Source: Candidatus Poribacteria bacterium (lineage in GTDB: Bacteria > Poribacteria > WGA-4E > WGA-3G). Taken from it: a stretch of 64,000 nucleotides of DNA. The position numbers were made by a program, and so were the translations under genes. Location: NCBI GenBank assembly GCA_965214095.1, contig OZ243938.1:3296001-3360000 (forward strand), in the 5' to 3' direction. The notes below the pieces were generated by a model that ran no database searches, was not told the origin of the DNA, and saw only the letters and a list, made by a program, of their open reading frames with translations. Position 1 is the stretch's first letter, and each line of letters starts with the position of its first letter. Positions 3,905-41,747 of the stretch are shown one piece after another.

Positions 3905-4588
3905 TTATAGGCTATTAGTCCATGTATTGCTGCGACTCACTACAACATAAGTACGTTTTAGTTTTTCAATACGGCTTGTGTGTATGTTTTCAATTTCTGC
4001 TCCAAGTTCATGCAGGACTCTCTTACTATGAGATATTTCAGTATTATGTTCTGTTGATTTATACGCTATCCATTTCCCTGTTGCATTTAGTAATGGCAAG
4101 CAGTAGTGCGCCGATTTGTCCAGTGAGGCTACATAACGGGTCAAAACCCAATCGTAAGCGTTGATAAATTCATCTGTTTCAGCACAAATTTCTGCACGTT
4201 TTGCGATAACCTGGATTGAAGCGTCTATGTTTAGTTGCGAAATCAAATAGTTTAAAAATGCCACCTTTTTCTCAGAAGCCTCGACAAGCGTTAGACAGAT
4301 AGATGGAATATATATTTTAATAACAATACCCGGAAATCCTGCGCCAGTTCCAATGTCAATTACTTCTTGGTTCTCTGTGATTGAAAAATGTTCAAGGATG
4401 CTGATAGAATCGAGAAAATGTTTATATATCACCTCAGAGTCATCATGAAGCGCGGTAAGATTTATACGAGTATTCCACCTTTTCAGTTCTGTGCGATAAA
4501 TGGTCAATTGTTCAATTTGCTCAGATGTAAGTGGAAATCCATGTCTGTTGAACACTTCATCAAGTTGATTTTGGAACTGTGTTTTCAT
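3905..4588 (-). CDS. rsmG: 16S rRNA m7G527 methyltransferase
   Basis: WNTRINLTA, HFLDS, IDIGTGAGFPG; directly downstream of mnmG. Confidence 0.95.
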   Translation of the reverse strand: MKTQFQNQLDEVFNRHGFPLTSEQIEQLTIYRTELKRWNTRINLTALHDDSEVIYKHFLDSISILEHFSITENQEVIDIGTGAGFPGIVIKIYIPSICLTLVEASEKKVAFLNYLISQLNIDASIQVIAKRAEICAETDEFINAYDWVLTRYVASLDKSAHYCLPLLNATGKWIAYKSTEHNTEISHSKRVLHELGAEIENIHTSRIEKLKRTYVVVSRSNTWTNSL

Positions 4589-37019: not shown

Positions 37020-37077
37020 GAAGATTTAATTTAAGGATTTTTTATACCTCTGTGTTTTGCAGGGGTATTTTTTAGAT

Positions 37078-38304
37078 ATGGAAACACTTGCGATAACGAA
37101 TGGCGACATCTATACCCCGACACATTACGGTCACGGTAATCTCGTCATTCAAGGCGATAAAATATCAGCAATTACTAAAGAGCAATTACCTCCATCCGAT
37201 GAGGTGATTGATGCATCTGGTTGCCTTGTCATTCCTGGATTGATTGATGGATTGATTCACGGCGGTGGTGGTTGTGATAGCATGACCGGAAAAGTTGAAG
37301 ATATTGAGACAATTGCACGCGCACATGCATCAGATGGTGTGACTTCTTTGGTGGTAGGTATATCTTCTGGGAGTATGGAGCATATAAACGCATCTTTAGA
37401 GGCAATTGCACAAGTTGCTGATGAACCCGTGTCAGATGGATCTAGGATTATAGGGTCGTATGTTGAGGGGAAATTCGGTAGTCTTGCCAAGAATGGCGCA
37501 CAGAATGCGAAATACATTACACCTCCGAACTTTGAAGAATTTCACGCAATGTGGGCAGCCTCTGATGGTACATTAAAGGTAATTTCTGTCGCACCAGAAA
37601 ACGATGAAAATTTTCAGTTTATCAAACATCTTGCTGAATTTAGGACAGATGCTTATAATAACATTGTTATAGCGATGGGACATACAAACGCTTCTTATCA
37701 GCAAGCGATGGATGCAATTGACGCGGGTGTTACACGTGCAACACATACCTACAACGGCATGAGCGGTATGCACCACCGTGATCTCGGTGCACTTGAGGCA
37801 GTTTTAGATCATCCAAACATACACGCGGAATTGATTGTTGACGAACACCACGTAAATCCTTTCTGGGGTAAACATCTGATAGAAGCAAAAGGTGTTTCAG
37901 GTGTAGGATTGATTACGGATTGCACCGAACATGCGGGTCTTTCTACTGAAGAATGGCAGAAGGATGCCGTATATGAAGCAGCACATGACGCGTTTCAGCT
38001 TAAGGATATGGTTGATACGGATACCTATAAATATATAAAAGATGGTGCAATGTGGTTGGATGTTGGCAAACCGACTGAACGGCTCGCGGGAGCAATCATC
38101 ACATTGATGGATGGTGTCCGTAATGTTGTGAAGTGGGGATTTTCATTGGAAGATGCGTTGACGATGGCGACATTAACACCTGCACAGAATTTAGGTGTAG
38201 AGGATCGCGTGGGTTCAATTGCCCCTGATAAGGCTGCAGATATAGTTATTGTTGATGACAGTTTAAATGTGCAAAAGGTGGTTTTGCGTGGGAAAGTGAT
38301 ATAA
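37078..38304 (+). CDS. nagA: N-acetylglucosamine-6-phosphate deacetylase-like amidohydrolase
   Basis: PGLID..HG, APE, GHTNA, THTYNGM, ITD, LAG, TPAQNLG, ADIV; start ATG 37078. Confidence 0.8.
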   Translation: METLAITNGDIYTPTHYGHGNLVIQGDKISAITKEQLPPSDEVIDASGCLVIPGLIDGLIHGGGGCDSMTGKVEDIETIARAHASDGVTSLVVGISSGSMEHINASLEAIAQVADEPVSDGSRIIGSYVEGKFGSLAKNGAQNAKYITPPNFEEFHAMWAASDGTLKVISVAPENDENFQFIKHLAEFRTDAYNNIVIAMGHTNASYQQAMDAIDAGVTRATHTYNGMSGMHHRDLGALEAVLDHPNIHAELIVDEHHVNPFWGKHLIEAKGVSGVGLITDCTEHAGLSTEEWQKDAVYEAAHDAFQLKDMVDTDTYKYIKDGAMWLDVGKPTERLAGAIITLMDGVRNVVKWGFSLEDALTMATLTPAQNLGVEDRVGSIAPDKAADIVIVDDSLNVQKVVLRGKVI

Positions 38305-38495: not shown

Positions 38496-38524
38496 TTGAC
38501 ATGACCTTAATTAATGATTATAAT
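38496..38524 (+). promoter_or_regulatory. Consensus sigma70 promoter of the str operon
   Basis: Perfect TTGACA-17 nt-TATAAT. Confidence 0.9.
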
Positions 38525-38568
38525 ATAAGTTTTGAGTGTAGTTATAAGTCTTGTCCGCAGCAATTCAA

Positions 38569-38661
38569 GGGGGCATTCAATTTGAAAACAGTCTAACGTC
38601 GTTTTACAGCAACGTTAATATGTTCAGTTGAATCAGAAGCCCCGCGAGGGCTTTTTCTTTT
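38569..38661 (+). promoter_or_regulatory. rpsL leader with terminator/antiterminator
   Basis: AAGCCC-CGCGA-GGGCTT + TTTTTCTTTT; upstream GGGGC can alternatively pair with GCCCC. Confidence 0.6.
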
Positions 38662-38698
38662 GTCTATCCAGTAGTTATTATGGCAGTGAGGAGTGGAG

Positions 38699-39073
38699 AT
38701 GCCGACAATAAATCAGTTAATCAAGAAACCACGTAAGAAATATCGCAAGAAAACGAAATCCCCGATTCTCCAGCAGTGCCCACAACGGAGAGGTATCTGT
38801 CTACAGGTGAAAACGGTAACACCGAACAAACCGAATTCTGCTTTACGGAAAGTTGCCCGTGTCCGATTTACCTCTTCTGCTGATGAAGCAACATGCTATA
38901 TTCCTGGGATTGACCACAATTTACAGGAGCACTCAGTTGTGTTGGTGCGTGGTGGTAGAGTCAAGGATTTGTCAAACGTGCGGTATCACATTGTACGTGG
39001 GAAATTAGATACAGCAGGTGTAGAAAATCGTCGTCAAGGTCGTTCAAAATATGGTGCACGCAAACCCAGTTAA
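38699..39073 (+). CDS. rpsL: 30S ribosomal protein S12
   Basis: [43 protein letters not shown]. Confidence 0.99.
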
Positions 39074-39104: not shown

Positions 39105-39575
39105 ATGCCGAGACGTGGAAACGTCCCAAAACGGGAAGTCAATCCTGATCCTATTCATAACAGCAAATTGGTTTCAAAATTTATTAACCACATGATGTGG
39201 GATGGGAAAAAAGGCACAGCACAAAATATCGTCTACACCAGTTTCAAGATTATTGAAGAACGAACGAGTGAAGACGGTTTTGAAGTGTTTCGTGAAGCGA
39301 TCAATAAAGTAAAACCAGTGCTTGAAATTCGACCCCGTCGTGTTGGTAGTCAAACGTATCAGGTTCCTGTTGATGTAAAAACAGAACGTAGAACGACATT
39401 AGCAATTAACTGGATTATTGAATCTGCGCGAAGCCGAGGCGAAAAGGGTATGGCTGCTCGGTTAGCAGGAGAACTTATGGATGCTGCAAAAGAAGAAGGT
39501 GCAGCAATAAATAGGAAAAGAGACCAACATCGGATGGCAGAAGCGAATAGAGCATTTGCACACTATAGATGGTAA
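39105..39575 (+). CDS. rpsG: 30S ribosomal protein S7
   Basis: [31 protein letters not shown]. Confidence 0.99.
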
Positions 39576-39641: not shown

Positions 39642-41747
39642 ATGGCGGACAGAAATCAGAGGGTGCCACGAAGGTCAACCCTATCGCACACGCGAAACAT
39701 AGGTGTTATGGCGCACATTGATGCGGGTAAAACAACCGTAACTGAACGTATTCTATTCTATACGGGTAGAGTGTATCGCATCGGTGAAGTTGACGAAGGC
39801 ACAACCACAATGGATTGGATGGTGCAGGAACAGGAGCGTGGCATTACGATTACTGCTGCGGCGACTACCTGTAACTGGAAAGAACATCATATCAATATCA
39901 TTGATACACCAGGACATATTGACTTTACTGTTGAAGTTGAACGTTCTTTGAGAGTTCTTGATGGAGCGGTTGCTGTGTTCTGTGCCGTAGGTGGTGTTGA
40001 ACCCCAATCCGAGACAGTATGGCGACAAGCGGATAAATACGAAATCCCTCGCATTGCTTACGTCAATAAGATGGATAGAACGGGTGCTGATTTTTTCCGT
40101 ACCGTTGAAATGATGGAAGAACGTTTAGGCACAACAGCTGTACCTATTCAATTGCCGATTGGTTCCGCTGAACAATTCAGAGGGATCGTAGACCTGATTT
40201 CAATGAAAGGGCAATTGTGGGACGAAAGTAGTCAAGGTGCTGTTATTCATGAAACCGACATTCCACCAGAAATGGAAGAGATGGTGCACGAATATCGGGA
40301 CCAATTGTTTGAAGCTGTTGCTGAATGGGATGAAGAATTATGTGAGAAATACCTTGATGGTGTTGAAATCACACCTGAAGAGATAAAAGCTGGTTTACGC
40401 CAAGCGGTGCTTAGCAGTAAGGTCGTTCCAGTGCTTTGTGGAAGTGCACTAAAGAACAAAGGTGTCCAACCGCTTTTAGATAGCATAATCTCGTATCTTC
40501 CCTCCCCGACAGATGTCAAACCAGTCGTTGGTTTTAACCCAAAAACAGAAGAAGAAGAAACACGTAATTCAGATAAAGATGACCCGTTCTGTGCGTTGGC
40601 ATTTAAAATCACCACTGATCCACACGTTGGAAAACTGACATATCTGCGCGTTTACTCTGGGGTATTGAACAAAGGTGATACTGTTTACAACAGCAAGAGC
40701 GATAAATATGAACGTATTGGTAGGTTGATGCAGATGCATGCGAATAAACGTGAAGAACATCAATCCGTTAGTGCGGGTGACATCGTTGCAGCGATTGGAC
40801 TCAAAGACCTAAGTACTGGCGACACTCTCTGTGATCCGAAAGCGCATATTGCACTGGAAACGATGGTGTTTCCGTTACCTGTTATGTCAATCGCAGTTGA
40901 ACCGCGTTCACAATCAGATATAGACAAATTGAACCTTGCTCTCTCAAAATTGGCTGAAGAAGATCCAACTTTCAAAGTGCATCAAGACCCGGATACAGGA
41001 CAAACACTGCTATCTGGTATGGGTGAGCTTCATTTGGAAATCATCGTGGACAGACTTGTCCGCGAGTTTAATGTTTCAGCAAACGTAGGTTCACCTGAAG
41101 TGGCATATCGTGAAACACTTAAGAAACCGGTCAAAGCTGAAGCCAGATTCGTACGACAATCAGGTGGTAGAGGTCAGTTTGGTCATGTCGTTATTGAAGT
41201 AGCACCACTTGAAAAAGGTTCAGGTTTTGAATTTACTGATGAGACGAGAGGCGGATCGGTCCCACAAGAGTTCGTTCCTGCGGTAAGAAAAGGTATTGAA
41301 AACGCCATGAATGTTGGTACTTTAGCAGGATATCCTGTTGTTGATGTGGGAGTTCGTCTCGTAGATGGATCTCATCATCAGGTTGATTCCTCTGAGATGT
41401 CATTTTCCATTGCTGGTTCGATGGCATTCAAAGAAGCGGCAAAAAAGGCAGGTTCTGTTTTGCTTGAACCGATCATGGGTGTTGAGGTGATCGTACCAGA
41501 TGAGTATCTTGGCAAAGTGATTGGTGATCTCAATTCCCGTCGTGCACATATTAGAGATACGGAAGTGCATACGAAATCTCGGATTCAGGTTGTTCGTGTA
41601 GATGTACCACTTTCTGAAATGTTCGGTTATGTTAAGTCGCTTCGTTCGCTGACACAGGGACGGGCTAACTATACTATGGAGTTTGCACATTATCGGGAAG
41701 TACCAACAAGCGTTGCGGAAGAATTGATTACTAATACAAAATCGTAA
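39642..41747 (+). CDS. fusA: Elongation factor G
   Basis: [33 protein letters not shown]. Confidence 0.99.

Follow-up and report, generated by a model that had tools for sequence, protein, structure and literature searches.

Genes and features at the rpsL locus

The window, meaning here the whole stretch of 64,000 nucleotides that was analyzed, contains the genes rpsL, rpsG and fusA in the order of the str operon (Table 1). The rpsL gene is present in a single copy in the genome (5.25 Mb, 4 contigs, 94.5% complete). Its product, ribosomal protein S12, matched the TIGR00981 profile (rpsL_bact) over residues 1-123 with 203 bits (cut-off 112.95) and is 61% identical in alignment to the protein of the annotated E. 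coli rpsL (WP_000246815, locus L042). Residues are numbered as in the mature E. coli protein, in which K42, P90 and G91 are the K43, P91 and G92 of the numbering that includes Met.

Residues K42, K87, P90 and G91 of S12 are the textbook positions for translational accuracy and streptomycin response, and are nearly frozen in most bacteria. The window protein has Asn at 42, Ser at 90 and Asn at 91, and keeps K87, D88, L89, R93 and the KPNSA loop of E. coli (KPNSALRK, RVKDL). The N42 codon lies within CCG AAC AAA CCG (38822-38833), and AAG GAT TTG TCA AAC GTG (38963-38980) encodes K87, D88, L89, S90 and N91. The peptides TPNKPNSA and KDLSNVRY, reported in a preliminary description of this stretch, are therefore correct to the base, judged by the codons and the E. 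coli alignment. An alignment gap relative to E. coli places a one-residue insertion after F61; the loop forms SSADE and SSSDE are confined to the S12 type of the window's own genus.

Table 1. Coordinates of the features described in the text (positions in the window unless another contig is named)
Feature	Position	Strand	Basis or remark
rsmG (gidB), 16S m7G527 methyltransferase	3938..4504	-	TIGR00138, 162.4 bits (cut-off 99.5); G000:C1:3299938-3300504
nagA-like gene	37057..38304	+	TIGR00221, 243.7 bits
Promoter-like site and structured leader of rpsL	38496..38665	+	sequence scan, conservation, consensus fold
Perfect promoter-like site, TTGACA-17-TATAAT	38496..38524	+	5' of rpsL
Inner stem of the long leader hairpin	38593..38618
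Terminator-like hairpin, with T run	38635..38655		just 5' of the rpsL ribosome-binding site
Alternative start of rpsL, in-frame GTG	38693
rpsL (30S ribosomal protein uS12, 124 aa)	38699..39073	+	ORF from the ATG at 38699; TIGR00981 match
Codon AAC, Asn at E. coli K42	38825..38827	+	E. coli S12 alignment
Loop S59-S60-A61-D62-E63, with a one-residue insertion relative to E. coli and other Poribacteria families	38873..38887	+
K87-D88-L89, unchanged	38963..38971	+	E. coli S12 alignment
Codons TCA AAC, Ser-Asn at E. coli P90/G91	38972..38977	+	E. coli S12 alignment; S90 TCA 38972-38974, N91 AAC 38975-38977
rpsG (S7)	39105..39575	+	TIGR01029, 210.9 bits (cut-off 135.85)
fusA (EF-G)	39642..41747	+	TIGR00484, 1080 bits (cut-off 659.4)
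Single 16S gene	G000:C1:1578390-1579940, outside the window		numbered against annotated E. coli 16S
S12 type R42-K85-R87-A90-N91			loci L362-L369 (G064, G066, G116, G132, G140, G144, G148, G149); G159, G162, G167, G172

The gene upstream of rpsL is nagA-like and not rpoB or rpoC. The interval between the two genes holds a promoter-like site and then a leader, about 170 nt in length, with a long, conserved hairpin and a terminator-like one. This leader is kept in all 24 loci of the genus, and in the consensus fold the terminator stems vary yet stay paired. It is recognizable in one genome of family f2 (G025) and absent from genus g5. No family was matched in a search of Rfam. By its sequence and fold, the leader is a candidate attenuator or ribosomal-protein leader.

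Validation of the three residues

In principle, the observed residues could be imitated by errors of sequencing or assembly, by decay of the gene, or by a canonical rpsL elsewhere in the genome with this one as a divergent second copy. No evidence supporting any of these was found, and we regard them as excluded, their probability being practically nil. There is one rpsL copy in the genome, its ORF is intact and it stands in the rpsL-rpsG-fusA order. N42, S90 and N91 are present in all 23 matched relatives of the genus, which are independently assembled species and whose S12 is 98-100% identical to that of the window. N42 was read in 39 of 39 genomes of the genus with an rpsL match, the window's own included, and thus in 38 of the 39 other genomes of the genus; the exception is an 84%-complete assembly with no rpsL match whatever. 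Furthermore, by reading of the rows, the N42 codon is AAC in 71 and AAT in 6 of 77 Poribacteria species, so the residue was kept through synonymous change.

The rpsL gene is also covered by contigs of a different DNA study and of RNA libraries; at the three codons they differ only by 38827 C>T, which turns AAC into AAT (also Asn). Two of the RNA rows seem to be one data set filed twice, and RNA-library contigs alone are no proof of transcription. A contig of about 144-fold depth, which may derive from the source sample, is identical to the rpsL of the window. Runs labelled as sponge metagenomes make up 20 of 24 among the matches listed for the stretch, and come from 11 studies. The relatives, the single intact copy and the contigs of other studies together bear out the earlier statement that a sequencing error is unlikely.

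One defective rpsL was met in another assembly. In G145 (L415, contig C722; 81% complete, 1030 contigs) the reading meets X residues after KDLSNVR and continues in a shifted frame, which is probably an assembly defect.

Distribution among Poribacteria

The phylum sample comprised 176 Poribacteria species genomes of eleven families, the window belonging to family f1. N91 is found in every Poribacteria S12 that was read except those of G044 and G049 (both P-G), and occurs in other classes too. S90 is present in 7 of the 11 families, f1, f2, f6, f9, f10 and f11 among them, while P90 is found in f3, f4, f5 and f8. N42 was detected in 77 of the 176 species, all within f1: in the 39 matched genomes of the window's genus, in 5 of 5 from g9, g10 and g12, and in 33 of 64 from g13. 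Within the phylum, position 42 varies only in the window's order, where 156 genomes have K (61), N (77), R (12), T (4) or S (2); outside this order all 15 matched genomes have K.

The three substitutions consequently differ in age: N91 is nearly phylum-wide, S90 belongs to several families and N42 is of family level. The residues are real and are not a feature of one genome, since they are inherited lineage-wide. N42 is the wild type of 39 of 39 matched genus genomes, and not a derived mutation in an otherwise K42 species; a resistance-associated residue is here the wild type of a clade.

Occurrence in other bacteria

A scan for the pattern P-N-K-P-N-S-A-[LI]-R-K in one genome per species (185,579 species) returned 87 stretches. 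Of these, 80 were fetched: 60 were from genomes titled Candidatus Poribacteria or Poribacteria-like, all with KDLSNVR, 12 were genuine S12 genes of other taxa, and the remaining 8 matched by chance outside S12. The 12 non-Poribacteria genes carry a canonical loop of the KDLPGVR type and belong to Anaerolineae, Saccharibacteria, single Streptomyces, Nocardia and Bacteroides records, and others. A scan for the G91N pattern gave at least 109 stretches, and the 80 among the matches listed are all from Poribacteria or unnamed MAGs. With T, R, S, I or M at position 42 at least 118 stretches were found, and the 80 that were fetched contained R42 in 75 and T in 2. Among the matches listed, R42 occurs in many lineages, such as Patescibacteria, Wolbachia and its relatives, Dehalococcoidia and Acholeplasmataceae.

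These scans agree with a recent survey by Ngo, Letten and Engelstadter (2026, preprint 10.64898/2026.06.09.731231) in that R42 is common in nature, so TPKKPNSA, described earlier as near-universal, is not so with respect to K42; the rarity of N42 elsewhere stands. The same preprint states that 7.57% of 15,721 screened species have a native resistance-associated residue in S12. About 70% of these species carry 88R, 359 carry 43R, and only seven have other alleles, 43N or 43T included. The clades with native 43R or 88R named there are Wolbachia/Rickettsiales, Sphingomonadales, Planctomycetia and Coriobacteriia; Poribacteria do not appear in its main text. The literature searched, the main text of this preprint included, yielded no clade fixed for 43N, and a search on Poribacteria and rpsL, judged by titles, returned nothing on S12 residues. 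Native Arg at 42 or 87 was thus known already, while a clade fixed for Asn is absent from the literature searched.

Changes along the tree, linked residues and allele exchange

A maximum-likelihood tree was built from the adjacent rpsG-fusA DNA of 101 genomes of f1 and f2 and rooted on f2; it is a tree of linked genes and not a species tree. On it, the change from K to N falls at the base of f1, g11 went on from N to S, and a derived part of g13 returned to K. A recent K/N difference separates the near-identical G126 and G130 (0.94 third-position identity). Fitch parsimony on this tree gave 10 changes at site 42, 11 at 85, 6 at 87 and 6 at 90, while 78 of the 124 S12 positions have none. Four-fold synonymous sites changed 18.3 times on average (26 sites, range 7-35); the neutral benchmarks of 18.3 and 8.2 steps were computed without 25 artefact columns of the frameshifted G145. 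The classic accuracy residues are therefore among the fastest-changing parts of S12 in these bacteria, at about half the silent rate.

R42 is always accompanied by K85, R87, A90 ('GGKVRDLANVRY') and N91 (12 of 12 genomes). The carriers of R42-K85-R87-A90 are two f3 genera and ten g13 species. Third-codon-position identity of the R type is 0.33-0.35 between f3 and g13, against 0.62-0.76 between R-type and K-type genes within g13. Identity between f3 and g13 is low, and the four-residue set therefore arose independently, at least twice; horizontal transfer of the set between the families was rejected on the same synonymous-site values. Within g13 the R type shows six gains or losses on the linked-gene tree, even with weak nodes collapsed. 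The coupling of 42, 85, 87 and 90 fits the genetics of model organisms, in which changes of K42 act as suppressors of P90 mutant defects, and residue P90 packs on h44 next to the 1410-1490 pair (PMC3884664).

The identities of rpsL and of its neighbours do not match in some pairs. G172 and G146 are 95.2% identical in rpsG-fusA and 91.5% in rpsL, while G172 and G144 are 83.6% identical in rpsG-fusA and 92.1% in rpsL. Such mismatches suggest that rpsL alleles may also have been exchanged by recombination.

The 16S rRNA side of the pocket

Numbered against E. coli, the 16S rRNA has the changes U13A, C18A, A19C, U20C, G505A, C526U, U534G, A915G, U916G, G917U, A1410G and U1490C. Pairing is kept at U17-A918, A18-U917 and C19-G916, which we take to be the central pseudoknot, and at A505-U526 and G1410-C1490. 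In addition, C20-G915 replaces the U20-A915 of the U13.U20.A915 triple, and position 13 is A. The bases C912, A913, A914, G527, G530, A1408, G1491 and A1492-1493 are canonical. An inspection of helices 18, 27 and 44 had been recommended in the preliminary description, and it did reveal changes with pairing kept, in h1/2, 18, 27 and 44. The base triple was described for Thermus (PMC3278836). The streptomycin pocket is formed by h1, h18, h27 and h44 together with S12, where the drug contacts C526 and G527 (PMC10525438) as well as the Lys equivalent to K42 (introduction of preprint 10.64898/2026.06.09.731231, citing Carter 2000).

A 16S gene was found in 17 of 25 Poribacteria genomes tried, the 8 without one all being fragmented assemblies. 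A13, A18, C19, G916 and U917 are present in 16 of 16 Poribacteria 16S genes examined, G915 occurs in the window's class and not in family f11, and U526 is found in most, two genomes having C526. A526 together with G505 occurs in the S42 genus (g11) and in one R-type genome (G172). As the changed bases are shared across Poribacteria, the rRNA changes predate N42. Among the matches listed, G915 was also found in Bipolaricaulota, Thermotogae, some Planctomycetota and others, taxa that are absent from the N91 matches listed; the rRNA state alone therefore does not dictate the S12 state. No short-range covariation between RNA and protein was seen, and the K, N and R types of g13 share the same h18 bases. 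What is observed is a deep co-occurrence of the 16S and S12 changes, without short-range covariation.

The same nucleotides (526, 915 and 13) are hit in the known streptomycin-site mutants of 16S rRNA, in the 530-loop pseudoknot and at 912-915. Those mutants disturb pairing or are single, whereas in Poribacteria the partners have changed too (A505-U526, C20-G915) and the structure is kept. Powers and Noller reportedly found in 1991 that pairing-disrupting changes at 505-507/524-526 give resistance. Since pairing is kept here, the 16S changes may leave drug binding unchanged. U526 with A505 and G915 with C20 are absent from the curated rrs resistance panel (523C, 885A, 912G, 913G).

Position 526 lies within the site of 515F-type primers, with U in nearly all f1 and A in g11 and G172; U526 would explain a mismatch of Poribacteria with these standard 16S primers. 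U534G is polymorphic within the window's genus. In family f8, the 16S genes L576 and L580 (G054 and G053) have U1400 and A1409-U1491 in place of C1400 and C1409-G1491, positions that lie in the aminoglycoside (2-deoxystreptamine) site of h44, and the S12 of the same two genomes reads RDLPNVGY, that is, R87 and G93. Extra 16S fragments with canonical C526/G505 were found on small contigs of G124 (C282, C339) and G135 (C47), and are probably contaminating contigs.

Modification enzymes

Loss of rsmG leads to low-level streptomycin resistance in other bacteria; in this genome the gene is present, within the window. The methylthiotransferase RimO was not found in the genome by profile search, the best hits being MiaB and MtaB, which score 497 and 448 bits on their own models (L571:1375-2799 and L572:1387-2727). 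In E. coli, RimO methylthiolates D88 of S12, and its target lies in a pocket of 16S 522-528 and S12 44-51 (PMC3347575). Across the window's order, none of 159 genomes had a RimO match over the cut-off, versus 14 of 17 other Poribacteria. The order that lacks RimO coincides exactly with the group whose position 42 is variable. However, 8 of 14 control genomes likewise had no RimO match reaching the cut-off, and the loss in the order is a single event. Loss of RimO alone thus cannot explain the variability of K42, and we treat it as a lead and not as an explanation.

Comparison with known streptomycin and accuracy alleles

The residue at 42 is the one that replaces the drug-contacting Lys in laboratory and clinical K42N (43N) mutants of E. 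coli, Salmonella and others. Such mutants are resistant and restrictive: 43N belongs to the high-confidence group of streptomycin-resistance substitutions and carries a fitness cost (preprint 10.64898/2026.06.09.731231), and in Salmonella K42N lowers readthrough and missense errors (PMC6547416). These mutants are recent, costly, single and found in sensitive species, whereas N42 of Poribacteria is the wild type of whole genera and occurs with S90, N91 and an altered 16S. The native 43R and 88R clades resemble Poribacteria in having inherited, as clades, an S12 residue associated with resistance. They carry low-cost R alleles, though, while Poribacteria have 43N in 77 species and also 43T, 43S and 43R+88R. 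The window has neither of the low-cost alleles (43N with K87); 43R+88R is found in 12 related genomes.

P90 and G91 are listed as streptomycin-dependence sites (PMC3884664, PMC3347575), and the same loop that is altered in the dependent mutants of Thermus thermophilus and E. coli (PMC3884664) is altered in Poribacteria. The changes differ in kind. The bulky P90L and P90W cripple decoding in the drug's absence (PMC3884664), while S90 and N91 are natural, widespread and evidently functional. None of the characterized residues (91L and 92D in the panel of preprint 10.64898/2026.06.09.731231, P90W and similar) is present, the window having S and N, and the Poribacteria changes at 90/91 fall outside that panel. 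Compensation of P90 defects by changes of K42 and of the 1410-1490 pair (PMC3884664) is matched here by the association of S90 with N42 and by the 42/85/87/90 set. The preliminary description had assigned all three substitutions to sites of resistance or dependence; this holds for 43N and for P90 and G91 as sites, but S90 and N91 themselves are not among the alleles characterized in these sources. Streptomycin-dependent growth is implausible for residues that are nearly phylum-wide.

Possible origins of the S12 types

It seems to us reasonably probable that N42, S90 and N91 are wild-type layers of a co-evolved, remodelled pocket of S12 and 16S rRNA (h1, h18, h27, h44) with re-tuned decoding. 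Changes in the 16S rRNA and in the 87-91 loop of S12 would have accumulated over time and made K42 less necessary than it usually is, so that residues with a cost in E. coli and other enterobacteria could be tolerated, and even fixed. The restrictive, hyperaccurate effect of N42 known from enterobacteria would probably be offset by S90, N91 and the rRNA changes, and a re-tuned net accuracy is more likely than an extreme one. The ribosome of this uncultured organism is predicted to be insensitive to streptomycin, by analogy, because the drug-contacting Lys is gone and nucleotides of the pocket differ. Both this insensitivity and hyperaccuracy are predictions drawn from distant model organisms. 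A naturally insensitive or re-tuned decoding center had been suggested before. The suggestion gains from the real residues at drug sites and from the changed 16S; it has to be modified insofar as the three substitutions are of different ages and S90 and N91 are not characterized alleles. K42 was regained inside the family, which indicates that the canonical residue still works there.

Antibiotic selection, by which S12 resistance alleles would be kept through recurrent streptomycin-like compounds in the sponge holobiont and swapped by recombination, is possible but in our opinion unlikely. The residues at 42 (N, R, T) and 87 (R) are all classic resistance substitutions in the panel of preprint 10.64898/2026.06.09.731231, the R42/K85/R87/A90 set is convergent, site 42 changed 10 times in one family, and runs with this DNA are labelled sponge metagenomes; the K/N difference between the close relatives G126 and G130 and the hints of mosaic genes (G172 vs G146 and G172 vs G144) point the same way. 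On the other hand, 61 of the order's 156 genomes still have K42, which has also been regained, R42 plus R87 would be redundant for resistance, N91 and S90 are older than the variability and have no shown resistance effect, and site 42 changed at about half the synonymous rate and not above it. Some form of selection is thus favored by the convergence of the R42+R87 type and by the signs of allele exchange, while the persistence and return of K42 and the sub-silent rate speak against a simple resistance sweep. We consider it improbable that accuracy itself was selected, with a slower and more accurate N42 ribosome suiting a slow-growing symbiont and drug insensitivity as a by-product. This would agree with the lower readthrough and missense errors of K42N in Salmonella (PMC6547416) and with the stability of N42 in 39 of 39 matched genus genomes through AAC/AAT turnover. 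However, sister lineages of similar habit carry K, S or R at 42, R being non-restrictive (PMC2916820), and the S90/N91 background may cancel the effect, given that K42 changes suppress P90 defects (PMC3884664).

Beyond the remodelled pocket, a bolder version is conceivable, which we judge rather unlikely. Sponge-associated Poribacteria would possess an alternative decoding-center architecture in which K42 is dispensable, enabled by the earlier 16S changes and by loss of D88 methylthiolation. Discrete, co-adapted S12 types (K-S-N, N-S-N and R42-K85-R87-A90-N91) would persist across species, arise repeatedly and be swapped through recombination while natural streptomycin-class compounds of the holobiont exert fluctuating selection. 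If true, a core ribosomal protein would here carry a natural resistance polymorphism of long standing.

The interest of the lineage lies in its costly alleles, its repeated linked changes and the involvement of the rRNA. The natural exceptions described so far are almost all low-cost R alleles, whereas in this lineage it is the costly N and T alleles that have become fixed. The finding also cautions that 'resistance' at a drug's target site can be old and have nothing to do with clinical use. Finally, the lineage is a natural experiment, in which the same four-residue set has at least two origins and changes also affected the rRNA and a protein modification close by. From it one can learn what changes in the background render K42 dispensable and how S12 and rRNA jointly set the accuracy of translation.
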